This document shows positions 7,084 through 39,049 of a stretch of 64,000 nucleotides of DNA, in pieces (position 1 is the stretch's first letter; every line of letters begins with the position of its first letter). The stretch is from Patescibacteria group bacterium (GTDB taxonomy: Bacteria; Patescibacteriota; Patescibacteriia; Veblenbacterales; UBA10138). Location: the NCBI GenBank assembly GCA_041645215.1, contig JBAZQK010000004.1, positions 2,475-66,474 on the forward strand, written 5' to 3'. The position numbers and the translations under genes are program-made. The notes under the pieces are model-generated. The model ran no database searches. It had not been told where the DNA came from and saw only the letters and a program-made list of their open reading frames with translations.

Positions 7084-7973
7084 TTCATCCCCGCCGAATC
7101 GGCGGGGCATTCTGGGTGTAACGGGGTAAATCGCCAGGAAATATTATGTGAAGGAATAGAGTAGCAAGACTTATTTTTAATGTCTCAACTTGCCCAACTC
7201 CGCCGCTAAATTTTATACCAAATTCTTACTATTCGCCTATTTCCTCCAAACCTGCCTGCCCACGGTCCCGCTGCGACGGAACCTCGCCTATAGCGGGGTG
7301 TGACCGGCAGGCAGGGGCGGGCGCGCGAATTAGATCATGGAAAAGATAGGATGGACAATCAAAAGTATGGTTCAACTTTTTAAAACCAATAGCCTCACCC
7401 AATAAAATAAATAGTATTAACCCCCCAGAGCAGGCTCTGGGCTCATATTCTGATTTTAATCCCGTAGCAAGCGGGCGCGGTATTATGATAAATGGAACTC
7501 CCTCCCGCTGTCCGCCGGCTGGCGGAATCCGGAGGTTATTCTGACGAAGCCCCGCTAAGCGGGGCGGAGGCGGATAAAAGAATCGAGTATCGAATAATTA
7601 AAATAGAACCCCCCAGCTAAAGCCGTGGTACCTGTCCCAACGCTCCTGCGGGGCGAACCGTAACACATATTGTGCGGCCGCACAATATGTGTTACGGCAT
7701 GCGGCCAGCGTCAGCCTTGGTCCCGAACTTTGCTCTGGTACAAAGGCGCCAGCGGACCAATTCACTCACCTTTGATGTACATCGGGGTGATCCTCTGGAC
7801 GCTGCGCTAGAATGAGTTGTGTTTTAACCTCTTGCTTTATTACCTAAAGGTTATATTTTTTTATACATCTCGCGCCATCAAATTTTGTGTTAAATTGTTA
7901 CTATTCGCCTATTCCCTCCAAAGGCGGGCAGACGCACGAATTAGATCATAGAAATGAACTACCTCACAGCCAG

Positions 7974-10998: not shown

Positions 10999-11448
10999 AT
11001 TATATCACAGTCCGTGTTTACTTACGTAAAGTAAAAATATCAGATTCAATCAGGTGATTTAACTGGCCCCGGGGGTCACTTCGACAAGCTCAGGACACAT
11101 TAAACCAAAACCATTCGCCAGGCTCATTGTTTTTAAAATTCGACAGGCCCATGGCACAAAGCCATGGGCCTGTCGAATGGCTCCCCAGCCATCACGCTGT
11201 TATAAGTTTGCTATCGAATATAGATTACTCAAATACTGGATGGCCTTAAAATTATAGCTCCGGGTCGTGGTGCCTGCCTGACGGCAGGCAGGGACATTAA
11301 AACTGGAGTGATAGCTAAGGCTGCAGCCTTAGCCTAAGTACCCCACACCCCAGCACCAGCATAGCTTCCTATTGACTCATTATTTCTTTTATTGTAAGGT
11401 CTTTATGAAGACCACAAAAGTACCCAACAAACAAAAAAAGAGGTAAAA

Positions 11449-17601: not shown

Positions 17602-18135
17602 GGCTTACTCTCCTTTTTTGTTATTGTTATTAAAGGACAATTTTGAATTCAGTTTTGAATTCTTTAAATCTTAATATATAGTTAAAAATATGTCAATTTA
17701 TTAATACTAATCAAGGGACAGATAAAAAAGAGGCTCTTGTTTCTCTTAGTACATGTTAGCTTGTGATAATAAATGTTTCAGACAAATAAAAACGAGCGAT
17801 TTAAATCTACTCGTTTAAACATTCTAATTTTTTGTCTTATTTTGATAAGACGCATTTAAAGCTTTGATAAACAGAAATAGAACCCGTACCAAATTTGTCC
17901 GATTTTGATTAACATAAATTTATCTTTTCATTATACCGCAAATCACCGCTGGCACGCTTATTATAAACAAAACAACCCTTCCGAATAAACAAGTTGTTTT
18001 GTTTGGCTCACTGCCGTCAGGCAGGCAGGCGGGGGTGGAACGTCAAACGTTCCTTGTTCGAGTGCCACACACTTACAAAGCAAAACAAAAAACCGCGAAC
18101 CAAAAAATTGGCTGCTTAAAGTATCGTTATAAATT

Positions 18136-23645: not shown

Positions 23646-23800
23646 TTGGCTCCGAACGCTGAACGAAATCCGAACTTTTTTTAGCGAAAATCCGAACGCT
23701 GAATTTTGAAAAACTTTTAAGCTCGGGCGGGCAAAAAGGAAGGGGGTTGGGGGGAAGGAATTTTTGCCCGTCCTCGCTTTTCCGCCGCCGCCGAATTTCG
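23646..23800. repeat. IR-A copy 1 (155 bp), begins with core TTGGCTCCG
   Basis: 100% identical inverted copy at 26624..26780. Internal sub-repeats tccgaacgctgaa x2 and a G-rich hairpin gggcaaaaaggaagggggttggggggaaggaatttttgccc. Confidence 0.9.
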
Positions 23801-23848
23801 TGCCAACTTCGTTGGCGCGCCGCCTATAAATTTAAAAATTCATTCTTT

Positions 23849-26230
23849 TTAATTCTTATGAAATTTCCAAACAACGTCATAGGCCAAATCCGCAAGTTCT
23901 TCTTGTCTTTCTCTTATTTCTTTCTCGCCCCATTTATAATTAAGTTTTTCAAATTCTTTGATTAACTTTTTATTAATTTCTAAATCAGACCTCCTAAATT
24001 CACCAACTTTTTCTTGCAACTTTTTATTTCCAACTAAACCATTTATTTTTTTAGCTATTAATGTTAAGTTGCCTAACATATTAACATAATTCTTTATTTC
24101 TTTTTTAGTTAGCGACCATTGAGAGGGATCCTGCGGTAAAACATGTTCGATATTAACCTTTGTAAAATTTAAAGTTTTCTCTTCGGTTGCAGATAATGCC
24201 TTTTCTATATTGGAGAGAATGTAAAGAACAAGTTGATAATTTCTGTACTCAATTTCTAAAAACTTCTCTTTAAATAATGACTTATTCGGATAAGAAAGGT
24301 TTTTTTCGAACTGCGATAATGCTCTTTGTACATTTTTGATTATATTTTCCTTGCTACTAGAATTCTCTATAGCTTTTCTGACCTCCTTCGCAGCGTTGAA
24401 ATAAACCCTTTCTACAACGTTCCCAGATAATTTGCAAACGGCAGAATATGCAAAATGGTACCTTTCAATTACTTTAAAAATTTCGCTGAAATCATACTCA
24501 ATCTTGTCTTTATTCATCAATAAACATAGCACCAACGAATAACATTGAGTTATCCCCATGATCCTTAATCCGGCCATGGCCTCGTTAATTTTCTGAGCTG
24601 TTTTCTTTTCTTGAAAATCCTCTAACCAATCTTCGGGACTTATTGAATCATTAGCAATTTTATAATAAAATCCAGAAGCCTTCTGTAATTCTTGCAAGAA
24701 CGCCCTTGGATCGCCCTTAACTTCGTTTTTTATTTCTTTGTAAAGTTTCTTTTCTGGAACAAAAGAATATCTCGAAAGCCAAAAATATCTAATAAATTTT
24801 GAAACATTCAATGGTCCTCTTGCGCTTTCAACGTTATTCTCAATGTTACTCCAAATATCCTTCGCAACATCTTCTCCCCCAGGAGTTTTCGGCAACTTAC
24901 CAAAAAGATAGTTCTTTAATAAATCAGCCGCTGTTAGGTCTGCTCCGCGTGCGTTGACGGTTTCAAATATAGAATATGCGTCTTCTTCATTTTCTATCTT
25001 TATTAAAATTATTTTTAAACTAAATATTCTTGCTTTAAAATCGTCTAAACATTTAACTTTATCTTCTAAATTAAATTGATTAAGATCTTCGCTTATTTTG
25101 TCTCGGATAAACTCATAATTAGATTTTATTAATTTTTCCTCTTTTGTTTTTGGCTTAGAGGCTAGAATATTAGAATCTTGCTTCTGGATATGTTCCGTAA
25201 AAAAGTTGTTCAACGAATCTCCGCACTTTAATCTGTTTTCTTGTTTCGCAGTAACAGGATCTTTGCGTGCTATTATACTTTGCGTAAGAATCGATTTTTC
25301 AGTTTGATCTAATTCTTTGTATTTATCTCTAATAACGGCCATCAATATGGTTAATGTTATTAACCTTTGCTGACCGTCTATAACCTCAACAAAACCGTCT
25401 TCATCGTATCTTTCATAGTTGAAGACAAAAGATCCTAAAAAAGTGCTCTCTCCACTAATCAAATCACCCCACAAATCGGAAACTTGATCATTGGTCCACG
25501 AATATGGTCTTTGATATCTCGGTATCTTATATTTTTCCTCACCATCATATAAAATAGCCCTTAGCTCTATATCGACAGCACGAAAATCCAATTTATCGAT
25601 TTTTTGCCTATTATAACTAATGGTATTATACTTCATATTGTTCCCACTTTTTACATCAGAATTTTCTAAATTATCTTCCGTTTGTTTGTCGTTTTTTCTT
25701 GTTTTAATTTTTGTATCTTTCTTTTTCTGAATCATTTTGTCAGTAATTATATACGATTTCTTAATTTTCATAAGTCTCTTTTCGGATAACGGGTATTCCT
25801 TTTTATCTTTTTGAGAGCCCTCCAAAAGATTTTTAATCGTGTTGCCATCTTCCTCGTTTAACCTATTCGGGGACCCTCGTCTGATCCCTCCCCATTTTTT
25901 GGCTATCGTTAATTCAGAAACGATCCGATCTGCTGGAACGCTATGCAAAAGATCTAAAGTTATTACCGGCTCAATATCCATTAAGCATGGGAATGGTCCG
26001 CCTCTCCAAACTTTCTTTGATGCCTCATGGCTAAAATACGGTTTTGAGATTACTTTTAAGATGCCCGAAAAACGCATTTCTCCTGTTATATAACAAACTA
26101 AAAAATCTCCGGGTTTAATTTGCTGGGTTAAATGCCATCTATTTTCGCGAAACCCACTTAATTTAAAATTATTCTTTTTTGCTTCCTCCCAGGTTTCAGG
26201 AGTGAATAAATCTAACCAATATTGAGTCAT
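23849..26230 (-). CDS. GmrSD-like type IV restriction endonuclease (EVE/PUA-like N-domain + DUF262 + DUF1524)
   Basis: N-terminal EVE-like modified-base reader fold pattern. DUF262 motifs YQRPYSW and DGQQRLITL. C-terminal DUF1524/HNH-like NIEHVLPQ. 793 aa. Confidence 0.8.
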   Translation of the reverse strand: MTQYWLDLFTPETWEEAKKNNFKLSGFRENRWHLTQQIKPGDFLVCYITGEMRFSGILKVISKPYFSHEASKKVWRGGPFPCLMDIEPVITLDLLHSVPADRIVSELTIAKKWGGIRRGSPNRLNEEDGNTIKNLLEGSQKDKKEYPLSEKRLMKIKKSYIITDKMIQKKKDTKIKTRKNDKQTEDNLENSDVKSGNNMKYNTISYNRQKIDKLDFRAVDIELRAILYDGEEKYKIPRYQRPYSWTNDQVSDLWGDLISGESTFLGSFVFNYERYDEDGFVEVIDGQQRLITLTILMAVIRDKYKELDQTEKSILTQSIIARKDPVTAKQENRLKCGDSLNNFFTEHIQKQDSNILASKPKTKEEKLIKSNYEFIRDKISEDLNQFNLEDKVKCLDDFKARIFSLKIILIKIENEEDAYSIFETVNARGADLTAADLLKNYLFGKLPKTPGGEDVAKDIWSNIENNVESARGPLNVSKFIRYFWLSRYSFVPEKKLYKEIKNEVKGDPRAFLQELQKASGFYYKIANDSISPEDWLEDFQEKKTAQKINEAMAGLRIMGITQCYSLVLCLLMNKDKIEYDFSEIFKVIERYHFAYSAVCKLSGNVVERVYFNAAKEVRKAIENSSSKENIIKNVQRALSQFEKNLSYPNKSLFKEKFLEIEYRNYQLVLYILSNIEKALSATEEKTLNFTKVNIEHVLPQDPSQWSLTKKEIKNYVNMLGNLTLIAKKINGLVGNKKLQEKVGEFRRSDLEINKKLIKEFEKLNYKWGEKEIRERQEELADLAYDVVWKFHKN

Positions 26231-26235
26231 ATGTT

Positions 26236-26445
26236 TTATTTCATTAAATTATCAAGCGAAACGCCGAGCGCGTCCGCAATTTTTTTGACTGTATCAATAG
26301 TAGGGTTGGGTGTCGAGCCCGCTTCAATTTTAGCGATAGTATGAAAAGCCAAATTTGCCTTTTTTGATAAGACATCTTGAGAAATACCGAGCTTATTTCG
26401 GAATTTCTTTATATTCTCGGCGATTGTGGATTTTTCGTTTGACAT
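26236..26445 (-). CDS. XRE-family helix-turn-helix transcriptional regulator
   Basis: 69 aa with canonical Cro/CI HTH (LGISQDVLSKKANLAFHTIAKIEAG). Forms an operon with the GmrSD-like gene. Confidence 0.85.
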   Translation of the reverse strand: MSNEKSTIAENIKKFRNKLGISQDVLSKKANLAFHTIAKIEAGSTPNPTIDTVKKIADALGVSLDNLMK

Positions 26446-26623
26446 ATTCGTATAGTTTTACTACGATAGTTAGTAGATAACCATGATCATAACTTATCAC
26501 TAGTTAGTATATGAAATTTTTACAATTTAGTCAAACGAAATTAGGGAGTTCCTTGATGTTGCGCGCGAATGGGCAGGGTGGGTCAAGCGCAACTGTATTG
26601 GCGGCGCATTTCGCAAAGCGAAA

Positions 26624-26780
26624 TACGAAATTCGGCGGCGGCGGAAAAGCGAGGACGGGCAAAAATTCCTTCCCCCCAACCCCCTTCCTTTTTGCCCGCC
26701 CGAGCTTAAAAGTTTTTCAAAATTCAGCGTTCGGATTTTCGCTAAAAAAAGTTCGGATTTCGTTCAGCGTTCGGAGCCAA
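26624..26780. repeat. IR-A copy 2 (inverted), ends with core GGAGCCAA
   Basis: Reverse complement of 23646..23800 with no mismatches. Confidence 0.9.
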
Positions 26781-26898
26781 ATTGTATGTTGTGAGTTTAT
26801 TGCCTCGGCGCTTCGCGCCTCGGCAGGCAGGTTGTATAGTATTTGCCAAGATTTTTTGGGTTCAATCGCCACCTTTTGCGAAAGCAAAACGCGGTTCG
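26772..26898. repeat. IR-B copy 1 (126 bp), begins with core GGAGCCAA
   Basis: Reverse complement of 28347..28472 with no mismatches. Shares the 9-bp core with IR-A copy 2. Confidence 0.9.
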
Positions 26899-26998
26899 CC
26901 GTTGCAAAGCAACGGATAAACGAAGTTTATGAGCCAATCCTTTTATTTCCGCCAAAGGCGGAAAGCAAAGCGATAATTTTTAATAGCCCAAAAACGAT

Positions 26999-28507
26999 AT
27001 GAAATATTTTTTATACATTAGAAAATCAACAGACGAGGACGACAGACAAGTTTTGTCGTTGGAAGCGCAGGAAACGGAATTGAAAGAATTTGCCTTGCGG
27101 GAAAATCTTTTGATCGCCGCGACTTTTCGAGAATCGCAAACTGCCAAAGAGCCGGGCAGACCGATTTTCAACGATATGCTCAAACGAATGGAAAGCGGCG
27201 AAGCCGAAGGGATTTTAGCGTGGCACCCCGATAGATTGGCAAGAAATAGCATAGACGGCGGACGAGTTATTTTTCTGATTGATACCGGAAAAATCAAGGC
27301 GCTAAAATCCCCGACATTTTGGTTTGAGCCGACCCCGCAAGGCAAATTTATGTTGAATATCGCTTTTGGGCAATCCAAATATTTTGTGGATAATCTTTCA
27401 GAGAATACCAAAAGAGGGTTGCGTCAAAAATTGCGCCGAGGCGAATTGCCCGGCTATGCTCCGCTCGGCTATTTGAACGATTTGCTAAAGCACACAATGT
27501 ATAAAGACCCAGAGAGATTTCGCCTCGTCAAGAAAATTTTTGAACTTTACGCAACTGGCAATTATTCTCTGAAAGATGTGCGGAAGTTAATAACTTCCGC
27601 TGGCTTGTTGAGCCGAAAGAAAAATATGCTTTCCGTTTCAAATATCCAAAGCATACTTTCAAATTCTTTTTATTACGGCGTTTTCAAATATAACGGCGAA
27701 ATGTATGACGGAAAGCATGAGCCAATGATTCCAAAGAAACTTTTTGAAGCGTGCCAAAAAGTAATGGCGGATCGTTCGCGCCCGAAAAAACCAAGCCAAA
27801 AAGAATATCCATTTAGAAATATGCTCGTTTGCGGTGAGTGCGGGTGCGCCATCACTTCCGAAACGCAAAAAGGACATAACTATTATCGTTGCACCAAAAA
27901 GCGGGATAAAAAATGTTCGCAAAAATATATTCGCGAGGAAGTTTTGGCAAGCCAGATTAAAGACGAGATTCAAAAAGTTTCTTTGTCTTCCGCTTGGGCG
28001 GAGTGGATGTTAAGCGAGATGAATAAAGAAGAAGCGGAAGCCGCCCAAAGCGGAGCCGTTTTCGCTCAAAATCTTAAAGACAAAATAAAAGAACTTGAAG
28101 GAAAGCTCGACCTACTTTTGGACGCACATTTGGACGGCACAATTTCTCGCGAGGAATACACCGCTAAAAAGGAAAAAATCATCAACGAAAAAAGCGAGTT
28201 TTCCGAAAAATCAAAGGATTTTGAGCGAAACGGCAATCATTGGCTCGAACCGGCCAGACAATTCATTTTAGCGGCTCAACAAGCCAAAATTGTCGCTTTG
28301 CAAGAAAATCCCGTCGCGGGACGGGATTTTCTCAAAAGGATTGGCTCGAACCGCGTTTTGCTTTCGCAAAAGGTGGCGATTGAACCCAAAAAATCTTGGC
28401 AAATACTATACAACCTGCCTGCCGAGGCGCGAAGCGCCGAGGCAATAAACTCACAACATACAATTTGGCTCCGGGGGTGGGACTCGAACCCACGACCAAG
28501 TGCTTAA
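26999..28507 (+). CDS. large serine recombinase (resolvase/invertase catalytic domain + recombinase domain + zinc ribbon)
   Basis: N-terminal YIRKSTDEDDRQVLSLEAQ (catalytic Ser), recombinase domain, Cys-rich CGECGCAITSE...YYRC, coiled-coil tail. The last ~50 codons are encoded by IR-B copy 2 and the tRNA-Asn 3' end. Confidence 0.9.
   Translation: MKYFLYIRKSTDEDDRQVLSLEAQETELKEFALRENLLIAATFRESQTAKEPGRPIFNDMLKRMESGEAEGILAWHPDRLARNSIDGGRVIFLIDTGKIKALKSPTFWFEPTPQGKFMLNIAFGQSKYFVDNLSENTKRGLRQKLRRGELPGYAPLGYLNDLLKHTMYKDPERFRLVKKIFELYATGNYSLKDVRKLITSAGLLSRKKNMLSVSNIQSILSNSFYYGVFKYNGEMYDGKHEPMIPKKLFEACQKVMADRSRPKKPSQKEYPFRNMLVCGECGCAITSETQKGHNYYRCTKKRDKKCSQKYIREEVLASQIKDEIQKVSLSSAWAEWMLSEMNKEEAEAAQSGAVFAQNLKDKIKELEGKLDLLLDAHLDGTISREEYTAKKEKIINEKSEFSEKSKDFERNGNHWLEPARQFILAAQQAKIVALQENPVAGRDFLKRIGSNRVLLSQKVAIEPKKSWQILYNLPAEARSAEAINSQHTIWLRGWDSNPRPSA
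28347..28472. repeat. IR-B copy 2 (inverted), ends with core TTGGCTCCG fused to the tRNA-Asn 3' end
   Basis: Identical to the reverse complement of 26772..26898. The core equals the last nucleotides of tRNA-Asn (GGAGCCAA). Confidence 0.9.
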
Positions 28508-28540
28508 CAGGCACCTGCTCTACCACTGAGCTACCCCGGA
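28466..28540 (-). tRNA. tRNA-Asn (anticodon GTT), CCA encoded
   Basis: Cloverleaf folded by hand. Acceptor TCCGGGG/CCCCGGA, D-arm GCTC-AGTGGTA-GAGC, anticodon loop CTGTTAA, T-arm GTGGG-TTCGAGT-CCCAC, discriminator G plus CCA. Confidence 0.9.
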
Positions 28541-28800
28541 AAGTTAAATGACTTTTGTTTTAATAAACTTCTTAAATATTCTTTACCGCTACCTGATTTA
28601 AAATACTTCTCCCTTTTCCTGGCATCATTTCTACTACCTACTCTTTCCGAATAAACCAACACCCACGGATAGTAACCTTTAGTTGAAAAAACTCTTTTGT
28701 TATTATGTTCATGCAACCGCTGTTTAATATTTTGGGACATCCCAACGTATAATCGACGATCAATTGAACTTTGAATTACATAAATTGAATATATAGGCAC
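28531..28800 (-). CDS. small GIY-YIG nuclease family protein
   Basis: 89 aa: YSIYVIQS...RLYVGMSQNIKQRLHEHN...G (GIY-YIG core). Stop codon lies within tRNA-Asn nt 2-10. Confidence 0.85.
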   Translation of the reverse strand: MPIYSIYVIQSSIDRRLYVGMSQNIKQRLHEHNNKRVFSTKGYYPWVLVYSERVGSRNDARKREKYFKSGSGKEYLRSLLKQKSFNFPG

Positions 28801-28841
28801 AACTCAATTATACACCTACTCCCTGCCTACCGGCAGGCAGG

Positions 28842-28861
28842 TACCGCTGAGCTACCCCGGA
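28842..28861. repeat. duplicate of tRNA-Asn 5' segment (nt ~1-17)
   Basis: accgctgagctaccccgga versus tRNA 5' end accactgagctaccccgga (28523-28541). Lies on the far side of the GIY-YIG ORF. Confidence 0.6.
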
Positions 28862-28999
28862 TTATTAAAGATCGCCTGCAAAAGAGCATCTCCTTAAAAG
28901 GAAATGCTCTTGTATACTAAACTATTCTTTCCCGCCTGACAAGGGTATGGCTGGTAAAACACCCTTGAAGAAATAAAAATTATTTGATACCATATCCTT

Positions 29000-29242
29000 A
29001 TGAGCGAACGCCATTACGAGAATGACAAGCCACCCAAAATGGAGGACGGTAAATTTTACAACATTGACCCGTTAATTGAAGTTAATGGTAAAATTTTTCG
29101 TAAAGTCCAATGCGAATACAGAAACCCAAGCAATCCTGATGAATATGCGGTCCGCGGTATTCCTGAAGGTAGTGATGAAATGAAATCTTTTGTATTGGGT
29201 TTTACGGACGATGGGGTAAAAATTACCGTAACTCAAGAATAA
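29000..29242 (+). CDS. hypothetical protein
   Basis: 80-aa hydrophilic ORF. Confidence 0.35.
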   Translation: MSERHYENDKPPKMEDGKFYNIDPLIEVNGKIFRKVQCEYRNPSNPDEYAVRGIPEGSDEMKSFVLGFTDDGVKITVTQE

Positions 29243-29307
29243 AGAATTAAAAACTCCGATTGAAAGAGGGTCTTACCCGCCGCTACGCCGAATAAAGTAA
29301 AATCATT

Positions 29308-29754
29308 ATGAGCAATCCTGATAAAAATACCCAAAACGAAATGGCCCTGGCCGAATTCAGGCTATGCCAGGAACAAATAGACAAATACGACGCGTCTTTG
29401 GACCACATCAGAACTTGGACTATAACCTTGTGGATAGCCACGCTGGGTTGGTCGTTTCAGACCAAACGCCAGGAAGTGGTGCTTTTAAGCATGGTGGCGG
29501 TAATTATCTTCTGGCTGCTCGACGCTATTAACAAATCATTCCGCGAGAATTATAAAACGCGGCGTGACCAAATAGCTACGGCTCTGCAATTACTCTTTAA
29601 CCAAGGGGTCTTACCGGTAGGATTTTCTTCTCCTCAGCTCCCGGCTCATGAAAAACTATTCAGCCAGACTTTAAGGGTAATGTTTTATTTCCATACGGCC
29701 CTGGTCTACATTATTCTTTTAATAATTTCACTACTGCTTTACCTGCAAATTTAA
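29308..29754 (+). CDS. hypothetical membrane protein
   Basis: 148 aa with 3 predicted TM helices. Confidence 0.5.
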   Translation: MSNPDKNTQNEMALAEFRLCQEQIDKYDASLDHIRTWTITLWIATLGWSFQTKRQEVVLLSMVAVIIFWLLDAINKSFRENYKTRRDQIATALQLLFNQGVLPVGFSSPQLPAHEKLFSQTLRVMFYFHTALVYIILLIISLLLYLQI

Positions 29755-29817
29755 AACCAATAAAGAACCGTCCCGATGTACATCGGAACGGTTCTTTAGT
29801 TAGGCAAAATTTAATAA

Positions 29818-30846
29818 CTATGCCTTATCCAAAAAGTCAGTCCAACGTTTGGCTGTACGCTCTTTCCACACGCCTGAGTGATAGGCGTACGCCGCAATTA
29901 AAGGTAAGGTCAGGGTGGCTTCGGCATACACCATTTGTTCGTAAGTGGTTTCCACTTTCCCCCAGGAACTCGCCTCTTTCAAAGTAGAACTGGAACAAGC
30001 GCCATCGCGCACATCCGCCACCGTCAGCTGCACTGCGTACTTGTGCATAGGTACTTCGTGCCCTAAGACTTCGGCAGCCACCACTGTGTCCTGGGCAAAA
30101 TTCTTAGGCACACCGCCGCCAATCATTAGTAAACCGGTTAAGGGCGCGGCCATTTTAATTTTAGTTAGTTCCAAAAAATCTTTGACTGAATCAATCGCCA
30201 CGTGTTTTTCAGGATGATGATACTGGTGATAAACCAAACCAAAACCGGCTGACGAATCGGAAAAAGCCGGACAGAAAATCGGCACACCCTGCTCGTAAGC
30301 AACTTGGACTAATGAATCCGGTTTTTTAGCTCCGCCATTTTTCAAGAATTTACCCATCTCCCGGATAAATTCACGAGATGAATATGGTTTAGCTTCCAGA
30401 CTGTCGGCAATTTTAGCCACCGCGCTGTCACACTCTTTAAGTTCATCCTCATTAATAAAAGTGTCGTAGATGCGGTCAATGTGCAAGTCGCGCATCAGAT
30501 TGTCGTCAACAAACGGCGTGCCTTGATAATGTTTAAACCCCAGTGCTTCAAAAAAATCCATATCCACGATGGAGGCGCCAGTGGCCACAATCACATCTAC
30601 CATGTGATTTTTCACCAAATCAACGTAAACCTGCATACAACCAGCCGCGCTGGTGGAACCGGCCAACGTTAAAATAACCGTACCGCCTTTTTCCGCCAGC
30701 ATCATCTTGTAAATTTCCGCCGCCCGGGCTAGGTCGCGTGAGGAAAATGACATTTTGCTCATGGCCGGCACTAAATACGACGGGTCAATTTTGGTAAAAT
30801 CAATATGTTCAATTGGCTCTTTTAGGAAATCAGCTTGAGTAGGCAT
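29818..30846 (-). CDS. deoxyhypusine synthase-like protein (DHS-like NAD-binding fold)
   Basis: Length and conserved blocks (TLAGSTSAAG, VIVATGASIVDMDFFEALG, GGGVPKNF) typical of deoxyhypusine/homospermidine synthase family. Confidence 0.7.
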   Translation of the reverse strand: MPTQADFLKEPIEHIDFTKIDPSYLVPAMSKMSFSSRDLARAAEIYKMMLAEKGGTVILTLAGSTSAAGCMQVYVDLVKNHMVDVIVATGASIVDMDFFEALGFKHYQGTPFVDDNLMRDLHIDRIYDTFINEDELKECDSAVAKIADSLEAKPYSSREFIREMGKFLKNGGAKKPDSLVQVAYEQGVPIFCPAFSDSSAGFGLVYHQYHHPEKHVAIDSVKDFLELTKIKMAAPLTGLLMIGGGVPKNFAQDTVVAAEVLGHEVPMHKYAVQLTVADVRDGACSSSTLKEASSWGKVETTYEQMVYAEATLTLPLIAAYAYHSGVWKERTAKRWTDFLDKA

Positions 30847-31327
30847 AGAAAATTAGAATTACGAATTATGAATGATGAATTAAGAATAATCCATTAAAAA
30901 TCCTAAATCTTAAAACTTAAATCCCCGCCTGCCAAAGCTAAAGTCCTGAAAGATAATCTAACTATGAATATAAGTACTGTAATTCAAAGAGCTACTAGTT
31001 AATCAGGTAAGGCTAGCGGCGGGCAGGCTAAATAAATACCAAATCCCAAAATATAAATCTATTCAGTAATCAATTTAATGTTTATATGTTAATTTTGGGC
31101 TTGGTAGATTGGGAATTATTTCCCGCCCGAAGCGGGTCGGCCTATGGTGGAAGAAATTAGGATTTAGGAATTAGGAATTAGAAATTAACTTCTAGTAGTC
31201 TTTCAACTTACGAAACCTCAATAATAAAATAATAACATACGCGAGTCAGAAAATCAAAACCATCTCTTTAATCATTTGGTGCTGTCTAGGGGGGTTTATT
31301 TTGTCAATAAATTATATTCACTAATAA

Positions 31328-32230
31328 TTAATTATTTTTCTCACGCTCATCACGCGACAAAAGATCTAAAACCTCATAATTCTTAATTGGCTTAATAATT
31401 TCATCCTCTAAAATCATTCTGACGGTATTTTTATGTTTTTCCCAGGCTTTATCGTCTTGAAACCTTTCGCGCCGACGAATATACCAACTGTCCCACCAAC
31501 TTTTTAAAACTTGCGCCAATTTCTCTACGGAAATTTGCTTAGGACTGCCCGCCACCGCAATTTGCAAATTTTCTTTTACCACCCGATTATCAAATGGCGT
31601 GCCGTCAGCATTCCATTCTAGGGGTGGCAAACGGTAATATACTTGCTCACCATTACCCGGTTTATAAAGCCTTCGCATGCCGTTTCCAGGCTCTATTTCA
31701 AAACCATTCCAATAGGCCTCGGACTGATCAACTGCTTCGCCAACCAATACTTCCAATTTTTTCCCTGGATGCATTAACTCTTGCTGTTCTCGCGCCACTC
31801 CCAAAAGAAGCTCATCAACTCTCTGACTTAGGCCAGTCCCGCGATAGCCTCTGAATCCCTTAAATCCCGGCTTTTTCTCTTGTTTAGAAACAGGATAGCC
31901 AAGATAAAGTTTTGCTTCGGTTAAGGTAAAACGTATGGCCAAAATGCCATCCTGAACCGAACCATAAGCTCCGCTGACAAACTTATTATCAAGAGGATCT
32001 TTCAGCAAAGTACAGATGAAACGAGTTTTTGAATCCGGGTTTTTATTTCGGCTCATCTCTTCTTGAAAAACCTCCAATGACTCAACCTCGCCAGGTTTAA
32101 AATTTTTTTCCAGAAAAGCATGAAAATCGGCCAATGATTCTGCTTCAGGAGATAATATAACTTCTGCTTGATTACCAACACGCGTATACATATCTCTAAT
32201 GTCCTGCGCTGGAAATTCTCCTAACTTCAT
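31328..32230 (-). CDS. hypothetical protein
   Basis: 300-aa ORF with good coding periodicity. No recognised motif. Confidence 0.55.
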   Translation of the reverse strand: MKLGEFPAQDIRDMYTRVGNQAEVILSPEAESLADFHAFLEKNFKPGEVESLEVFQEEMSRNKNPDSKTRFICTLLKDPLDNKFVSGAYGSVQDGILAIRFTLTEAKLYLGYPVSKQEKKPGFKGFRGYRGTGLSQRVDELLLGVAREQQELMHPGKKLEVLVGEAVDQSEAYWNGFEIEPGNGMRRLYKPGNGEQVYYRLPPLEWNADGTPFDNRVVKENLQIAVAGSPKQISVEKLAQVLKSWWDSWYIRRRERFQDDKAWEKHKNTVRMILEDEIIKPIKNYEVLDLLSRDEREKNN

Positions 32231-32344
32231 ATATTAAAATCAAAAGTTAAAATTACAAATCAAACCCAAATTCCTAATTTCAAATTTTGACATTTAGTCA
32301 TTTAGTCATTGATTTGACATTTGAAATTAAAAATTTGTCATTAA

Positions 32345-33631
32345 CTAGTAGTCTTTCAGCTTGCGCATATCAAAATGATCCTGAATGCGCTCCAAGGCCT
32401 TAGCCTCAATCTGCCGAATGCGTTCGCGCGTCACGCCGAATTCCTGCCCCACCTCTTCCAAAGTGTGCGACACGCCGTCATGCAAACCAAACCGCATTTC
32501 CAAAATCTTCTGCTCGCGCGGCGTCAATTCCTGCACGATCGCCTTAACATGGTCGCGCAACAGCTGCATCGCCGCCACGCGGTCGGGCGACACTGTCTTA
32601 ATGTCCTCAATAAAATCACCCAAGGTGGAATCTTCGTCGTCCTCGCCGACTGATGTTTCTAAACTAATAGTTTCCTGGGAAATTTTTATAATATGATGAA
32701 TCTTTTCTATCGGCTCGCCCATTTCCGCGGCAATTTCCTCGGGCAACGGCTGGCGCCCCAAATCCTGAATTAATTGGCGTTCAATCTGCTGAAAACGGTT
32801 AATGGTTTCTACCATATGCACGGGAATGCGAATCGTGCGCGATTGGTCGGCCAAAGCGCGCGTAATCGCCTGACGAATCCACCAGGTGGCGTAAGTCGAA
32901 AATTTGTAGCCCTTGCGATAATCAAACTTTTCCACCGCTCGGAACATGCCGATATTACCCTCCTGAATTAAATCCAGCAACGATAATGATTTACCAGTGA
33001 ATTTTTTGGCAATTGATACCACCAAACGCAAGTTTGATTCAATCAAGCGTCGTTTGGCCTCTTGGTCGCCGCGCTCCTTACGCTTGGCCAAGACAATTTC
33101 CTCGTCGGCTTTTAACAACGGCACCTTACCAATTTCCCGTAAATACATTTGTATGGAGTCGGTCGAAATTTCCGAAAGATCATAAGGTTTTTTATCATTG
33201 GAAAGCCCGGCTCGTTTAAAAATACCCTCCTTTTTTTCGGCCATATCCAAAATACTGCCCTCGGTTTCCAATACCTGAATACCCTGCTTATCCAAATCAT
33301 CCAAAAAAATATCGTAGCGGTCAATATATTCCTCCACCTCGGGAAAGACGGCTAAAGCCTCGTCTTCGGTTACAAAACCGCGCGTTCGGCTTTTTTTTAT
33401 AAGACCAAAAATTTCGTCCTCGTTCGGCTCCAGTATCAACGGTTTGGCTTGGAACCGGCTTTTAACTTTTTTAACCGCTGACTTCTTAGCTTTGGCAGTC
33501 TTGCCCTTAACTTTGACCTTGCCAGTTAGCTTAGTAAACCGCTTAACTTTTGGCTTAAGGCCGGCCTTGGGCTTGGTTCTGGCAGGCGGGCGGCTAATCT
33601 TAGCTTTAGCGGCCGATTTCTTTTTTACCAT
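32345..33631 (-). CDS. rpoD: RNA polymerase primary sigma factor (sigma-70/RpoD)
   Basis: Region 2 [39 protein letters not shown], region 4 [26 protein letters not shown]. Lys-rich N-terminus. Downstream of dnaG. Confidence 0.95.
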
Positions 33632-33633
33632 AA

Positions 33634-35424
33634 TTAATTTTGCGAGTTGGATAATTGCTGACTAATTTTATTAAAATGATCTAACAAACTGGCGAGCTCT
33701 TCCTGGCTCCCCCGTTTTTCCGCATCCTTAATAGACAAACTAAGCTGTTTAAGCTCATTACTAAAATAATGCCGTCTAAGCTGAATGAGTAAATTTTGCG
33801 CTTCTTTAACTGCCGCGGTCTCGTCATAATCGGCAAAATCGCGCTCACCCATCATACCTAAAGCATCAAACTGACGGACTAAATCCGCCTCCGCCCATAA
33901 TTCACTGCGAAACTCATCAATATCAAAATCCTGAACTTTATTATAATAAATCATTAGTCGTTTGTAAAGTTCGGACAAATCCTTTCCGGCTAACATTTCA
34001 AAAGGTAAATTAGCCATTAACTCATTCCAATCCCGCTTAAACTTAATCAGCAAGGCCAATAACCGTTCGGACATTAAGCGTGGCCGGTCAATATTAGGCA
34101 AAGGCGTGGCGGCTGATTCAACTGCCGTATTTTTGGTCGGAGTTAGTTGGGCAAATTTTTGCCGCAAAGCTAGCTCATCCGTACTTATGACGCGCGCCAA
34201 TTGTTTTAAATAATAATCTTGCTCCACCGGATCAGGTAGTTTACTGATAGCTTTAAGCAAACGATTAGCCGCTACTTTCTTGCCTTCGCGCGTGGCCACA
34301 TCAACCTCTTTTAAAACAGTCTTAAACGCATAATCAACTATGGGCAAGGCTTGGGCAACGGCCGCCTGCCAGGCGGCAGTATCTTGACGGGCGCATTCGT
34401 CAGGATCTTTGCCGAACGGCAAAATTATAACTTTAACCTCCATTTCTGCTTGCAACGCTAAATCAATACCGCGCTCGGAAGCGCTCCGACCCGCCAAGTC
34501 AGCATCAAAGGCAATTCTAATTTCATTAGTATAGCGTTTGATTAATTTAATTTGGTCCGGTGTTAAGGCCGTGCCTGATGTCGCCACTACATTCTTGGTG
34601 CCAGCTTGCCAGACGCCGATAACATCCATATAACCCTCCACCAAAACCGCGTAGCCTGCCTCTTTTATATAGCTCTTGGCGCGATTAAGGTTATAAACCA
34701 AAAAACTTTTATTATAGGCCGGCCCTTGGGGTGAATTAATATATTTAGCCTCCTTAGCCTCCGCTGTCAGAACACGACCGCCAAAACCAACTATGCGGTT
34801 TTGCGCGTCAGCTATCGGGAACATTAAGCGTTCGCGAAACCGATCATATATACCCGGCCCCCGCTCACTCTTGAGGGCCAAACCAGCCGCGACTAATTCG
34901 TTAATGGTAAAACCTTGTTGGCGCAAATAATTACTTAATTTATCCCATTCCGGCAAGCTATAACCAATGCCGAAAGTATTTATACTGTCGTCAGTTATTT
35001 GACGCTCCCGCAAATAGGCCCGGACAGTTTGGGCCAACGACGATTTAAGAAGCTGCTCCTGAAAAAACATTTGCGCCTTTTCCAAAGCGTGCAGTAAACG
35101 CAAACGCTGGCTTGATTCAGCTGGACTGACTTTGTCCAAAGTAACTTGCGCCCGCCGCGCCAGCATTTCCAGCGCCTCGGGAAAATCCATACTCTCTAAG
35201 CGCTGTATAAATTCAAAAATATCACCGCCGCTATTGCAGCCAAAACAATGCCAAATCTGGCGTTCACGCGACACCATAAAAGACGGCGTTTTTTCATTAT
35301 GAAACGGGCACAATCCCTTCCAATTTTGACCAGCTTGCTTTAGGCGCACATATTCACCCACCACATCTATAATATCCAAGCGGGCTTTGATTTGTTGAAT
35401 AACATCAGACGAGGCCATAAACAA
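33634..35424 (-). CDS. dnaG: DNA primase DnaG
   Basis: Zinc ribbon [40 protein letters not shown] plus DxD. Classic dnaG-rpoD arrangement. Confidence 0.95.
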
Positions 35425-35561
35425 CGGATGAATTAAATTATATACTATTCTTAGAGCGATATGTGAATATGATAGGTATCACCGCTTCATAGGTATTGTA
35501 AGGGGTTTAGAGAGCTTAGTCTATCAGTCTATTGAAGGGTATTTGGGCCGAAGGACCGCAG

Positions 35562-36197
35562 TTAGATAATTTTAATTTCAATAGAGCCTGACCCGATTTT
35601 TTTATACTCTTTGGGAAATTTATCAAGCTCAAATTCTATCGCCGTCAGGCTATCAATTCCTATACCATAACGCGCCTTAGCTTGTTTCATTTCTTGAACA
35701 AGCATCGTTTGTCTTTTTTTTTCCGTATAGTGTGGCTCTATTATTGTATTTTTTATAATCCCAAGACCCCTAAGGAGCCGACGCGGGCCGTCACGGCGGC
35801 CTGACCTAAAATACGTTCCCAAAACCATAGCACCGGCTGATTCACCAATAATATAAGAAGCATTTTTAATCAAATTTAATAACCGAGAATTTGATTTAAT
35901 TTTCTTAATTAGATTAACATGCTCGCTGCCACCGCTTATGAAAACTAACGGCGAACGAGCCTTGTTAATATCGGATTTATTGGCAGCATTAAGATAATTT
36001 ATTCCCGGCAAATGAATATGCCTATGGAACCAATCTCCACTCCATTCTATTTCTTGGGTTTGCGTGCGGGCAAAAGGAATATGAAGGACTTGTTTTACCC
36101 CCAAGCGTTTTATAACTTTTTCAATAAGTTTTAATTCCCGCGCTACCTGCCTGGGCTCAGCGCCGCCAAATAAAAATACTTTCATTGATTTATACAT
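35562..36197 (-). CDS. peptidase S51 / class-I glutamine amidotransferase-like (peptidase E/cyanophycinase-like)
   Basis: GESAGA nucleophile-elbow motif and overall Rossmann-like layout. 211 aa. Confidence 0.55.
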   Translation of the reverse strand: MYKSMKVFLFGGAEPRQVARELKLIEKVIKRLGVKQVLHIPFARTQTQEIEWSGDWFHRHIHLPGINYLNAANKSDINKARSPLVFISGGSEHVNLIKKIKSNSRLLNLIKNASYIIGESAGAMVLGTYFRSGRRDGPRRLLRGLGIIKNTIIEPHYTEKKRQTMLVQEMKQAKARYGIGIDSLTAIEFELDKFPKEYKKIGSGSIEIKII

Positions 36198-36399
36198 TTA
36201 CTTATAAATTGGCCCTACCTTTCCTTAATTTTGGTAAAATTGAACAGGTACTATCTAATGTTACACTATAGAGAAATAATTTATTTGCGGGGTTCTACTC
36301 TGAACGAGCAGGACGGCGGGACTTCACTTTTCGCGCCTACGGAACTTGTGTCAACTAACGCTGATACGCCACTTTTTATGGTTAATGTTAATTATAATT

Positions 36400-37554
36400 T
36401 TACTCTTTTGCTTGCTCCAATAAAGGTTTAATCAATTGCATTTTCGGACCGAATTTCTTTCCTAGTTCTTTCGGTTGGGAAGAAACAATAGAAAGAATTT
36501 GTTCTTTTTCTTCGGCGGATATTTGCCCAGTGGAAATTAGAGTATCAAGTTTCTCTCCAAGAGTCAGAAGATTATACTTTTCCTCGCGAGGTATAATTTT
36601 TTCAATGTCCTCGGCGGTTAGAACCTTATCTTGTTTTTTTAAAGCGGTTAACTCGTTTTCTCTAAAAGTAGTGCCTTTATCCGTATATTGTTTAATAAGT
36701 AAAAAATTGTCACGCGACTTGGCTAGATTAGCAAAGTTACTTAAATTAGGTTTGCCGTCTGGTCCAAGCGAAGCTATTGTATCAATGTAAGATGCAACCA
36801 AAATAAACTTTTGCTGATTTTCAGAAAACCCCGGCTTTACAAAATGTCCTTCATAAGTCGCCGCGTTTATTTTGCCAAATTGGTAAGCCACCTCGTGTTT
36901 GCTTATGGCCGTAATAATTTCGGGTGGTATCCCCTTGTCTTTCAACATCTCGGCGGCCTTGTTCCCGTGTTGGCCATTTGCTCCTTCACTTGAATGAAAG
37001 TAAGAAATTGAGGTGATCAGTTTACCCTCGTGTTGGTAAGGAAGGCCATTTTTCTCAATATCTTTCCATTGTTCCCAAGTAATTTCAATTCCTTTTTTCT
37101 CAGCTTCAATTTTTAGAGTCAGACAATCGGGCTTAGCGACATCGTGAAGAAAAGTATAATCAATGAGAGCGGGATTAACGGCAGTTTTTTCCGGATTATT
37201 CCCTTCTCGCCTCACAGCGATACCCGCCATTGCTTCCCTTAAACTCACTTCCTTGAGTGATTCGTGAAATTGTCCATCTTTCATTGACTCTAGAGTTGCT
37301 AATATCAAAGAAAGATGAGAATCCATTCTAGGGCCTTCATTATGATGCTCACCTAGCTGTGGAGTCTCAAGCGAGGTTTTAATTTTTTCCGAGAGTTCGG
37401 GGAGTCTTTTACACACCTCGTTTAAGGCAATTTCAAAGTCCCTTTTTTGCAATTCTTTTACCCGCTGTTCGCCCATCGCCCTCTCCTTATTTGTCATCAT
37501 TGCTTCGGCCTGATTGATTTCTTCTGGCGGTGGTTCGTATTTTTCCATAGACAT
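36400..37554 (-). CDS. HD-domain-like phosphohydrolase (putative)
   Basis: FLHDVAKP (HD motif) with upstream His residues. Otherwise uncharacterised. Confidence 0.45.
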   Translation of the reverse strand: MSMEKYEPPPEEINQAEAMMTNKERAMGEQRVKELQKRDFEIALNEVCKRLPELSEKIKTSLETPQLGEHHNEGPRMDSHLSLILATLESMKDGQFHESLKEVSLREAMAGIAVRREGNNPEKTAVNPALIDYTFLHDVAKPDCLTLKIEAEKKGIEITWEQWKDIEKNGLPYQHEGKLITSISYFHSSEGANGQHGNKAAEMLKDKGIPPEIITAISKHEVAYQFGKINAATYEGHFVKPGFSENQQKFILVASYIDTIASLGPDGKPNLSNFANLAKSRDNFLLIKQYTDKGTTFRENELTALKKQDKVLTAEDIEKIIPREEKYNLLTLGEKLDTLISTGQISAEEKEQILSIVSSQPKELGKKFGPKMQLIKPLLEQAKE

Positions 37555-37613
37555 ATTTGTAATGTTAAAAATTATTCTTCTAAAATTGTTATATCCTTAC
37601 TATATTATAACTT

Positions 37614-38165
37614 TTATTTAAACTCGCTAAAAGTAACTACAGTGATGTTATCCAGATTATAGCCGTAGTGCCTAAAGACTTCCCGTGCATCGCCGTCAAA
37701 TCTTTTTTCCCAATCAAGGCCGAGTTGATGGCAAACGTTTTTCAAAGATTCCACCGCCGGTCCTTCCATTTCCGCATAAACAGGAATCTTAGGCCAGGTG
37801 TCAATATCAATAGTTACGTCGCCCAGCTTAAAGGTATGCCGATACTTCTCTAATCGTCTTATCGCTTTTAATCCAGTACTTATTAAAAATTCCGAACATT
37901 CATTAAAATCCGATACTTCCAATTCAATTTCTTGCGCGCTGTCCACTGTTTGCCCCACATTCTCTTTATAAGTCAGCTTAACTTTATTTTTGGTTTGGCG
38001 TAGCCGCACAAACTTACCCTTTCCCTTCCACAATCCTTCTTTGTCGTGGAAAATTATTTCTGCCAATTTTTCTTCACCTTTATTAATCGCCCCGAGCGAA
38101 ACGAGTTTTTTGACCAGTTCATCTTTATTTATATCCAAAAACCTGGTTTCTATTTCCTTTTGCAT
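37614..38165 (-). CDS. CYTH-domain protein (class IV adenylyl cyclase / triphosphate tunnel metalloenzyme)
   Basis: N-terminal EIETRFLDI (CYTH ExExK-type motif) and ~180-aa size. Confidence 0.75.
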   Translation of the reverse strand: MQKEIETRFLDINKDELVKKLVSLGAINKGEEKLAEIIFHDKEGLWKGKGKFVRLRQTKNKVKLTYKENVGQTVDSAQEIELEVSDFNECSEFLISTGLKAIRRLEKYRHTFKLGDVTIDIDTWPKIPVYAEMEGPAVESLKNVCHQLGLDWEKRFDGDAREVFRHYGYNLDNITVVTFSEFK

Positions 38166-38415
38166 AACACCTAATTAAAATATTAATCCGCGGAAGGGGC
38201 AATCTGTCCCGTGGTGCCTTGCGGCCCATCCCGAGTTCCATCGGTCCGATGACTCCGTATGAGGCCGAGTATTGGGCTCCATCGGAGGACGCACTATATT
38301 TCCCTGTGCGGAGAGGAAGGCCCCGCAGTAGAACTGTAAATTCACTACGGGGTAAAGATTCGCCACCGCAGAGCGGGGTCCCGCTTGGCGGGAAACCCTA
38401 CCTTATCCTACTCAT

Positions 38416-38769
38416 CTATCCCACCCAGAGCGGAGAGGGCGGGATTTGAACCCGCGATACCTTGCGGTATGCCGCCTTTCCAAGACGGTGCACTAGACCA
38501 CTATGCGACCTCTCCGCTCTGGGCAAGATTCTCGCCCATGAGTATTTTAAATTGTATTCCCCCCTTATAGGATTTAATTTCTCTTTCCCGACGATACGCT
38601 TCAGACCTATTAGGAAAACTCTCTTGAAAATAAGCCTCCATGGCCGATAAGGCTTTGTTGAGCGAACTGTACCTCGGTTATGCTGTGTCAGTCGAACGTC
38701 AATATCTACAGCAGAACCAATGTAGTAACGGCCACTGCTTAAGCCTTTTAAAATATAAACGTAAAACAT
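38416..38769 (-). CDS. small GIY-YIG nuclease family protein (ORF reads through tRNA-Ser)
   Basis: MFYVYILKGLSSGRYYIGSAVDIDVRLTQHNRG... GIY-YIG core. The ORF track extends it N-terminally to 38919, probably spuriously. The frame stays open across the whole tRNA-Ser. Confidence 0.7.
   Translation of the reverse strand: MFYVYILKGLSSGRYYIGSAVDIDVRLTQHNRGTVRSTKPYRPWRLIFKRVFLIGLKRIVGKEKLNPIRGEYNLKYSWARILPRAERSHSGLVHRLGKAAYRKVSRVQIPPSPLWVG
38431..38515 (-). tRNA. tRNA-Ser (anticodon GGA), long variable arm
   Basis: Acceptor GGAGAGG/CCTCTCC, D-arm CGCA-TAGTGGTCTAG-TGCA (as typed in reasoning), anticodon loop TTGGAAA, 17-nt variable arm, T-arm CGGG-TTCAAAT-CCCG. Confidence 0.9.
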
Positions 38770-39049
38770 AAGTTGCTTTCTACCGCTAAGCGGCATCCTC
38801 CCGCATACAGGGTCCCGCCATGCGGTGACGTCAGCGGGCCAAACAGACACACCCCGCATTCTGCGGGGTAAACTAGACCACTTTACCCCGCCAGAGGCGG
38901 CGGTAGGCGATCTCTCCACTGGCTATATAATTAGGTAAATTTACACCGCAAGCGACTTTCACCTTAACACTTTTCGCCTAAAAAATAAAGCCCCCTAATC
39001 ATTCTTAATTGAAGATTAAAAGGGCCATAAAAAAGGGAAATACTAAACT

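Follow-up and report, generated by a model that had tools for sequence, protein, structure and literature searches.

A compact GIY-YIG nuclease cassette that carries a replacement 5' gene end in bacterial tRNA genes

How can a nuclease gene come to lie inside a tRNA gene and leave that gene intact? The question is raised by the tRNA-Asn locus of a 64,000-nt stretch of contig JBAZQK010000004.1 (assembly GCA_041645215.1; hereafter the window) from a Patescibacteria group bacterium, where an open reading frame (ORF) for a small GIY-YIG nuclease runs into the 5' end of the tRNA gene and a second copy of that 5' end lies further upstream. A preliminary description, made from the letters of the sequence, had proposed that the ORF was inserted in the tRNA gene along with a replacement for the 5' segment that it displaced. 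Comparison with close relatives and with loci from other genomes identifies a 321-bp cassette that is present or absent at one precise site of the gene, and a design, that of a compact selfish cassette of ~0.3 kb in tRNA genes, which recurs across two bacterial phyla. The locus lies on the minus strand and, in the direction of the tRNA, consists of a promoter-like site, the original tRNA nt 1-20, a palindrome, a relic of tRNA sequence, the GIY-YIG ORF and a complete tRNA-Asn:

28914..28942, minus strand: promoter-like site TTGTCA-17-TAGTAT, from a consensus scan only
28842..28861, minus strand: displaced original 5' end of tRNA-Asn, nt 1-20, with C at nt 16, contiguous with the native 5' flank
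28521..28841, minus strand: inserted unit of 321 bp (palindrome, decayed relic, GIY-YIG ORF and replacement tRNA nt 1-20), the sole insertion/deletion at this site between the occupied (window, L082) and empty (L081, L083) alleles
28822..28841, no strand: 20-bp palindrome (PAL) at the 5' end of the cassette, CCTGCCTGCCGGTAGGCAGG on the tRNA strand, with one mismatch to the consensus CCTGCCTGCCGGCAGGCAGG
28801..28821, minus strand: decayed relic of tRNA nt 21 onward (GAGTAGGTG...), with a TATAAT box just ahead of the ORF start
28531..28800, minus strand: GIY-YIG nuclease ORF, 89 aa, GTG start, a single domain like that of Slx1/UPF0213
28521..28540, minus strand: replacement tRNA nt 1-20, with T at nt 16, which also encodes the final ORF codons and the TAG stop
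28466..28540, minus strand: complete rebuilt tRNA-Asn(GTT), called by ARAGORN and by Infernal (73.4 bits, full model)

Two tRNA programs, ARAGORN and Infernal, agree on the complete tRNA-Asn, which ARAGORN calls as a contiguous gene, and the GIY-YIG assignment of the 89-aa ORF directly 5' of it is borne out by Pfam PF01541 (E 6.6e-14). The final ORF codons, TTT CCG GGG TAG, enter the tRNA, placing the TAG stop at tRNA nt 8-10. The duplicate 5' segment of the tRNA is likewise present, and unique in the window, though it spans nt 1-20 and not the ~1-17 first described; it differs from the tRNA by a single mismatch (C for T at nt 16) and forms with it a direct repeat with a start-to-start spacing of 321. 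A match that was merely a common k-mer would recur elsewhere, whereas the 19-mer, allowing up to 3 mismatches, occurs at two places in the 64-kb window against 0.01 expected from shuffled sequence. The preliminary description had overlooked both the 20-bp palindrome that follows the fragment and the decayed continuation of the tRNA beyond that palindrome. In this relic, GAGTAGGTG matches tRNA nt 21-29, GAGCAGGTG, at 8 of 9 nt, beyond which similarity is gone, and the ORF starts 21 nt past the palindrome. Because the distal piece continues as a relic past the palindrome, it is more than a bare 5' fragment: it is a copy of the tRNA into which 20 bp have been cleanly inserted after nt 20 and whose remainder has decayed.

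Exact protein identity to an 80-aa neighbouring gene (29000..29242) retrieved four contigs, and these supplied the empty sites in relatives that the preliminary description had proposed to look for. Two contigs, L081 (ENA) and L083 (JGI), hold an uninterrupted tRNA-Asn adjoining the flank ...GCGATTTTTAATAA, which in the window borders the distal fragment, while L082 (ENA) is occupied exactly as the window is. The flanks of empty and occupied strains are 99.6-99.8 % identical (blastn) and, at the site, the alleles differ by one 321-bp unit after nt 20, such that the cassette is an insertion polymorphism: at a single exact position of a conserved gene, the window and L082 have it, and their close relatives L081 and L083 lack it. 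At nt 16, the displaced fragment shares C with L081 and L083, while the rebuilt tRNA of the window and of L082 has T. As the fragment has both C16 and the native flank, it is the original 5' end and the cassette supplied its own replacement, as had been proposed. The relic is nearly unrecognisable while the strain background is near-identical, which indicates that the unit was imported whole and did not arise by fresh local duplication. In the alignment with the empty alleles (A2), the rebuilt tRNA-Asn takes nt 21-75 from the resident gene and nt 1-20 from the cassette. The insertion is therefore inside the tRNA gene, as claimed, with the junction at nt 20/21 instead of 17/18, at the border of D-loop and D-stem (Sprinzl A21|G22).

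The outcome is an intact tRNA, rebuilt from cassette nt 1-20 and resident nt 21-75, with no loss to the host. The ORF has no stop of its own and borrows a TAG from the tRNA, which is either U8-A9-G10 or a TA|G formed at the junction. A homologue with 69 % identity shares the ORF tail KSFNFPG, which marks the tail as element-borne, and duplication beyond the tRNA covers only ~3-6 nt upstream of nt 1, except at a few loci where the ORF does not abut the tRNA. The flank that holds the promoter-like site is common to the empty alleles, and TTGTCA-17-TAGTAT is probably, judging from its sequence, the native tRNA-Asn promoter, which now stands upstream of fragment, palindrome, ORF and tRNA. A consensus scan detected this native upstream site alone and no internal promoter for the ORF. 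A search of Rfam for introns, leaders and ribozymes (E up to 1, 28300-39100) returned two tRNAs only.

The layout is found well beyond this strain. A scan of one genome per species gave 563 relatives of the GIY-YIG protein, and the best 80 of these 563 loci (Patescibacteria, Bacteroidota and others; ~450 kb), to which the counts of the wider pattern apply, were retrieved. A same-strand tRNA begins -51 to +13 nt from the ORF stop at 61 of the 80 loci and within ~90 nt at five more (ARAGORN), with tRNAs for Asn, Arg (five anticodons), Met, Lys, Leu, Phe, Val and Gln as hosts. The fragment-ORF-tRNA layout that was expected elsewhere is present at most of these 80 other-genome loci, in 12 or more tRNA species. 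The commonest overlaps of ORF and tRNA are 10 nt, where the stop is U8-A9-G10, and 23 nt, where the TAG spans the junction as TA|G. Upstream of the ORF, nearly always, the first 20-22 nt of the local tRNA are followed by an insert of ~20 nt, after which the tRNA sequence resumes; at some loci, the resumed copy shows no difference from the local tRNA as far as nt 49-72 and reaches the ORF start. In the 59 upstream tRNA copies that could be analysed, a clean hairpin insert is positioned at nt 20-23 (Sprinzl A21|G22) in 48, the junction dinucleotides are TA|GA in 45, and 34 have CCTGCCTGCCGGCAGGCAGG itself as the insert. In the Bacteroidota, the cassette is most often hosted by Arg tRNAs; the third tRNA of the window, tRNA-Arg(TCT) at 57569-57642, has no cassette, fragment or palindrome.

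Displaced and replacement segments are identical in most loci, differ at the neutral D-loop position 16 in four, and differ in the acceptor and anticodon stems in L163, differences that would fit the import of donor tRNA sequence. Tandem arrays (L015, L056 and L066) fit repeated insertion at the same point of an intact copy, and decay is evident from ORF-less remnants and pseudogenes (L006, L030, L163, L157 and L134) and from a frameshifted ORF at a tRNA-Ser locus of the window (see below). Two interrupted genes, L007 4910-5005 and L008 379-471, are otherwise complete tRNA genes broken only by the 20-bp palindrome. ARAGORN calls these copies as odd tRNAs with an intron-like insert, and an intact copy of the same tRNA lies in a cassette nearby. 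A mirror form also occurs (L052, L080, L036, L079 and L006), in which an intact tRNA and the ORF are followed by part of the tRNA 3' end, interrupted by the palindrome at 32/33, 44/45 or 55-58. The mirror-form palindrome falls in the anticodon, variable or T loop, and at L080 2859-3386 each tRNA copy has its own terminator. In all forms, the palindrome marks the border with the short displaced end of the gene, while the opposite junction shows no seam. Among the loci sampled, no near-identical cassettes, from which the unit moved by an ectopic jump could be read, were found at different tRNA species, the closest pairs sharing the tRNA type, and ORF similarity follows tRNA type weakly.

Many contigs stop at the palindrome or within ~100 nt beyond the ORF or tRNA (L001, L002, L005, L013, L019, L021, L024, L037, L038, L051, L054 and L064), and L084 begins inside the palindrome; as repeats, the cassettes probably interrupt the assembly of short reads.

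The exact 20-mer CCTGCCTGCCGGCAGGCAGG occurs in 43 of the 80 loci, nearly always 20-60 nt ahead of the ORF, and all exact palindromes in these loci, which were ascertained by the ORF, lie in a tRNA/GIY context. The palindrome is identical at 20 of 20 positions between lineages whose ORFs have a synonymous divergence (dS) of ~1, from which it follows that its sequence is selected. In the variants, the outer arms are kept and the centre is varied or expanded, to the point of a palindrome inside a palindrome in L011. Compensatory changes in the arms are seen in a few loci (L037 and L075), the 20-nt forms varying too little for a formal covariation test, and a hairpin is predicted in the fold of the 55-nt junction DNA with a z-score of only -1.7. 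The palindrome is probably the nuclease's own binding site or structure-specific site and may act as a regulator, as the marker of a dead copy or as a substrate for solo dispersal.

A different picture was obtained from metagenome contigs chosen for the palindrome without regard to ORFs (L085-L164; 85 sites in 80 loci), where 78 of the 85 sites are solo and outside tRNA genes, ~7 are in tRNA contexts and ~5 are beside a GIY-YIG ORF. Some of these contigs hold several palindromes within 1.5 kb (e.g., L144), a behaviour like that of repetitive extragenic palindromes (REPs). No target motif was found at the solo palindrome sites, which do not lie in hairpin loops. Repeats of at least 8 nt abut the solo palindrome in 4 of 80 sites, an enrichment over controls that is not general, and target duplication of the transposon type was dropped as an explanation for solo palindromes on this count.

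The protein consists of one domain of 89 aa, which scores 52.4 bits for PF01541 (cut-off, 22.6) with no further Pfam domain. In an alignment of 29 GIY-YIG sequences (A1), from which conservation and a profile were derived, residues Y7, Y18, G20, R28, H32 and E64 either do not vary or show conservation of 90 % or more. The profile matches the nuclear magnetic resonance structures of the UPF0213 proteins BH0048 and EF2693 (PDB 1zg2, 5.3e-10, and 1ywl, 6.5e-10), followed by Slx1 (3.5e-5) and I-TevI (1.8e-3). An AlphaFold2 model (pLDDT 91) is one compact domain and, in Foldseek searches of the PDB, its best matches are Slx1 nuclease domains (TM 0.66-0.68), while matches to I-TevI and UvrC are not significant (E above 0.2). 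No conserved Asn follows the Glu helix in A1, so the protein lacks the C-terminal Asn of the UvrC/I-TevI lineage, a criterion taken from PMC1564403. By its predicted fold and motifs, the protein belongs to the Slx1/UPF0213 (YhbQ-like) branch and not to that of UvrC/I-TevI; the GIY-YIG label of the preliminary description stands, and the nuclease is a single-domain Slx1/UPF0213 protein, not a homing enzyme of the I-TevI type with a DNA-binding domain. The ratio of nonsynonymous to synonymous divergence (dN/dS) is 0.04-0.16 among related ORF pairs, a signature of purifying selection, and the catalytic residues, the dN/dS values and the Slx1-like model make the protein look active as a nuclease.

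Homologues of ~80 aa, from cassette genes of 80-89 codons, occur in Patescibacteria and Bacteroidota, and clustering of the family at 50 % identity (E up to 1e-3) gives 5069 groups of exclusively small proteins, with multiple copies in genomes. Searches of PADLOC and PHROGs gave no membership: PADLOC yielded weak, partial motif matches to the candidate defence proteins PDC-S14 (E at or above 3e-4), and PHROGs yielded nothing. An origin as a phage-borne homing gene was ruled out, only 2 relatives being found among 2.9 million viral contigs. A number of homologues (including P0005, P0018, P0054, P0055, P0089, P0139 and P0168) have N- or C-terminal extensions with LPAGRQ or PACRQA, which are the translation of a tRNA fragment plus the palindrome and hence mark read-through in gene calling (15 of 200 proteins).

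As to how the cassette spreads, we favour, with moderate confidence, nuclease-driven and homology-dependent copying (homing) into unoccupied tRNA genes. The nuclease would break or nick a tRNA gene that lacks the cassette, at the D-loop junction A21|G22 or close to it, and repair would copy the cassette from an occupied allele with tRNA nt 1-20 and flank as the left-hand homology and nt 21-75 and flank as the right, which would be homing without an intron or intein. From the stranded native promoter and original nt 1-20, a single transcript would then probably run through the palindrome, the ORF and the tRNA. The interrupted genes of L007 and L008 have the form that would be expected of aberrant repair, in which a broken tRNA gene used the relic as right-hand homology. 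Several points weigh against this reading. An 89-aa catalytic domain without a DNA-binding module offers no obvious means of sequence-specific recognition of tRNA genes; the presumed target is regenerated intact and not destroyed, and the tandem arrays suggest that it stays attackable. Homing gives no account of how an occupied allele would be immune, T16 in place of C16 being the only change to the target at this locus. The mirror architecture implies an insertion site that is not set by one DNA motif, and the predominance of solo palindromes elsewhere suggests that the palindrome may lead a life of its own. Homing alone leaves unexplained why the replacement segment and relic match each new tRNA, a match that must require rare ectopic jumps followed by gene conversion, or another mechanism. 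Cleavage by the nuclease is itself inferred, and whether the polymorphism reflects insertion or precise deletion is read from one single-nucleotide difference. Precise deletion between the 20-bp repeats that kept C16 would demand resolution within the last four bases, and the wider multi-genome pattern favours insertional activity over deletion.

The chief competitor to homing, which we think unlikely, is transposition guided by DNA structure, in which the Slx1-like nuclease would recognise the hairpin or cruciform of the palindrome as the element end and cut where loops meet stems in the folded single strand of a tRNA gene, the unit would be pasted into single-stranded loops, and a lone palindrome would be a non-autonomous derivative, in analogy to REP/RAYT or IS200/IS605. 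Recognition of a stem would account for a palindrome of conserved sequence that nevertheless admits nested inserts at its centre, and the insertions are clean, with no target duplication, in tRNA copies and solo sites alike. Nearly all insertion points are unpaired cloverleaf positions or loop/stem junctions (8-10, 14-21, 26/27, 32/33, 44/45 and 55-58), the palindrome is found within itself (L011) and in many dispersed solo copies, some of them in the window, and the closest solved relatives, Slx1, are structure-specific nucleases. Yet GIY-YIG enzymes hydrolyse DNA without a covalent intermediate, leaving the joining to host ligation with no obvious splint, and such a mechanism gives no account of a cassette whose 3' end is a 5' segment matched to each host tRNA. 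Solo palindromes have neither a target motif nor a position in hairpin loops, and the exact palindromes of the 80 ORF-ascertained loci never leave the tRNA/GIY context. It is a possible, if doubtful, extension that the palindrome and the Slx1-like GIY-YIG gene make up a previously unrecognised class of mobile DNA; that a structure-specific nuclease in this class would move a 20-bp hairpin, alone or with its gene, into single-stranded loops of folded tRNA-gene DNA is put forward just as tentatively. We consider it quite improbable that the cassette is a passive hitch-hiker, spread by ordinary recombination or horizontal transfer while its nuclease serves stress-induced DNA processing, addiction or defence. 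tRNA genes are universal anchors for recombination, L163 exhibits replacement of a whole tRNA, ORF similarity tracks tRNA type only weakly, the PDC-S14 matches are weak and partial, and regeneration of the presumed target is atypical of homing enzymes, all of which would suit a passenger. A passenger would not be expected to keep a nuclease under strong purifying selection always at the same nucleotide of many different tRNAs, nor to form tandem arrays at that site or a multi-copy family of 5069 clusters with frequent pseudogenes and without PADLOC or PHROG membership. A non-mobile gene in the tRNA leader, with a regulatory hairpin and with the fragment as the relic of an old tandem tRNA duplication, would explain the constant orientation and the geometry of co-transcription with the tRNA, but is very improbable given the empty L081 and L083 with their near-identical flanks, the variation of the host tRNA between genomes, the decayed copies and ORF-less remnants, and a relic far more diverged than the strain background. 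Finally, a serine recombinase adjoins the tRNA, and the 127-bp length of the repeats around it is a common assembler k-mer, which could point to a by-product of the neighbouring recombinase island or to an assembly artefact. We find this scarcely credible: the island is at the other (3') end of the tRNA, the cassette occurs in 80 other-genome loci independently of this island (the recombinase having been checked at this locus only), and independent assemblies exist of both alleles, L082 for the occupied one and L081 and L083 for the empty one.

The cassette shares individual traits with several known systems. T-even phages have free-standing homing endonuclease genes of the Seg and Mob families, among them SegB in the tRNA gene cluster of T4. 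Like these, the cassette has a small selfish ORF of the GIY-YIG superfamily at a conserved gene, is present or absent in relatives and is expected to spread by break repair with co-conversion of flanking markers. The Seg and Mob enzymes have DNA-binding modules and belong to the I-TevI/UvrC branch, in contrast to the bare Slx1/UPF0213-type domain of the cassette, and their genes sit between genes, without duplicated gene ends or a conserved palindrome, whereas the cassette sits inside a gene and rebuilds it. Integrase-borne islands and prophages in tRNA genes also carry a segment that restores the gene and leave a partial duplicate at the far border; in those, the 3' end is replaced instead of the 5' end, the length is 5-100 kb instead of 0.3 kb, and the junction is in the T-arm or acceptor instead of at a palindrome in the D-loop, while the 321-bp unit has the GIY-YIG ORF as its one gene and is without an integrase. 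The window has an island of this integrative kind at the 3' end of the same tRNA-Asn.

Group I introns, some with homing endonuclease genes, are frequent in the tRNA genes of Patescibacteria, where tRNA-Asn is a common host (PMC13011429). As with the cassette, these are selfish DNA in tRNA genes of the same phylum, tolerated as function is restored. Restoration is by RNA splicing, from the anticodon loop, in the introns and at the level of DNA in the cassette, which has no ribozyme (no Rfam match). REP/RAYT and IS200/IS605 elements resemble the cassette in having a short conserved palindrome by a nuclease gene, dispersed solo copies and no target duplications, but differ from this GIY-YIG cassette in their HUH (Y1) enzymes with covalent intermediates and in having no link to tRNA and no replacement of gene ends. 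The same minimal GIY-YIG fold and motifs are found in UPF0213 proteins (BH0048, EF2693 and E. coli YhbQ), which have no known mobile context, and in Slx1, which needs Slx4 and a RING domain. Stand-alone Slx1-like proteins of prokaryotes have been described as housekeeping proteins, vertically inherited and of unknown function, and a fusion to TrmH, which acts on position 18 of the tRNA D-loop, has been seen (PMC1564403).

The literature searched, including searches with the palindrome sequence, contained no description of the cassette, which is not proof of absence, and PMC1564403, PMC13011429 and PMC12455944 make no mention of it. The cassette is probably homing-type selfish DNA, without the DNA-binding module, integrase or intron that define the nearest families. 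It adds a third way for selfish DNA to live in an essential gene: introns use RNA splicing, inteins use protein splicing, and the cassette brings a spare 5' gene end within ~300 bp. It gives a selfish-element context to one lineage of the widespread and uncharacterised Slx1-like/UPF0213 nucleases and, should the hairpin-mobile class prove true, this would be the first biological role for the function-unknown UPF0213/YhbQ family. The conservation of the palindrome across phyla makes it and the nuclease a testable protein-DNA pair. The cassette also explains tRNA-like pseudogenes, ARAGORN calls of a tRNA with an intron, and odd N- or C-terminal protein extensions, and it probably explains contig breaks at tRNA genes in assemblies of Patescibacteria and Bacteroidota.

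A second cassette, in degenerate form, is found at the tRNA-Ser gene of the window:

38430..38515, minus strand: complete tRNA-Ser(GGA), target of the second cassette, called by ARAGORN and by Infernal (55.9 bits)
38501..38769, minus strand: second GIY-YIG ORF, with 30 % identity to the first; once repaired, its sequence matches PF01541 at E 5.9e-15
38872..38917, minus strand: displaced tRNA-Ser nt 1-11 and 12-24, with a 22-nt GC hairpin of the CCGCCGCCTCTGGCGG type between them

The same architecture had been claimed for this locus, and it holds in that an ORF runs into the tRNA and a displaced copy is present; it does not hold in full, as the ORF is frameshifted and the hairpins are of another, GC-rich type. 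The frameshift is due to the loss of 1 nt near 38672, which the independently assembled L205 and L206 share, and the restored frame stops at a TAG formed by tRNA-Ser nt 13-15. More GC hairpins follow the displaced copy, down to ~38775. In a genome that is otherwise AT-rich, clusters of GC-rich hairpins (CCGCC..GGCGG and CCCCGC..GCGGGG) are on both sides of tRNA-Ser (38775-38906 and 38340-38420), and similar ones replace the canonical palindrome in L013, L020, L033 and L075. The tRNA-Ser cassette belongs to another subfamily and is older and in decay. Look-ups for an empty allele of tRNA-Ser gave only identical occupied contigs or, in one case, nothing.

The window also holds palindromes apart from either cassette:

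11273..11292, no strand: solo palindrome with 1 mismatch, intergenic, with no ORF or tRNA nearby
7251..7315, no strand: palindrome halves CCTGCCTGCC ... GGCAGGCAGG around a 45-nt GC-rich insert (nested form)

Nested forms like that at 7251..7315 are present in L011, L035, L050 and L078. The solo, split or partial palindromes of the window are intergenic and have neither a further GIY-YIG gene nor a tRNA close by. A partial copy is at 18016-18033 and half sites are at 26822-26831 and 28414-28423, while the window has 16 matches to CCTGCCTGCC when 1 mismatch is allowed, against 2 expected.

On the other side of tRNA-Asn, a 4.8-kb island (23655-28465) adjoins the 3' end of the gene and is missing from L081 and L083. 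The island includes a GmrSD-type restriction gene (23849..26230, minus strand) and a large serine recombinase gene (26999..28507, plus strand), and the last 8 nt of the tRNA (TGGCTCCG, plus strand) are repeated at both of its borders. Perfect 127-bp inverted repeats (26772-26898 and 28347-28473) flank the recombinase, the right arm taking in the last 8 tRNA nt. The segment between these repeats seems to invert, 127 being also a common assembler k-mer size, and in L082 (MEGAHIT, k141) it lies in the opposite orientation.

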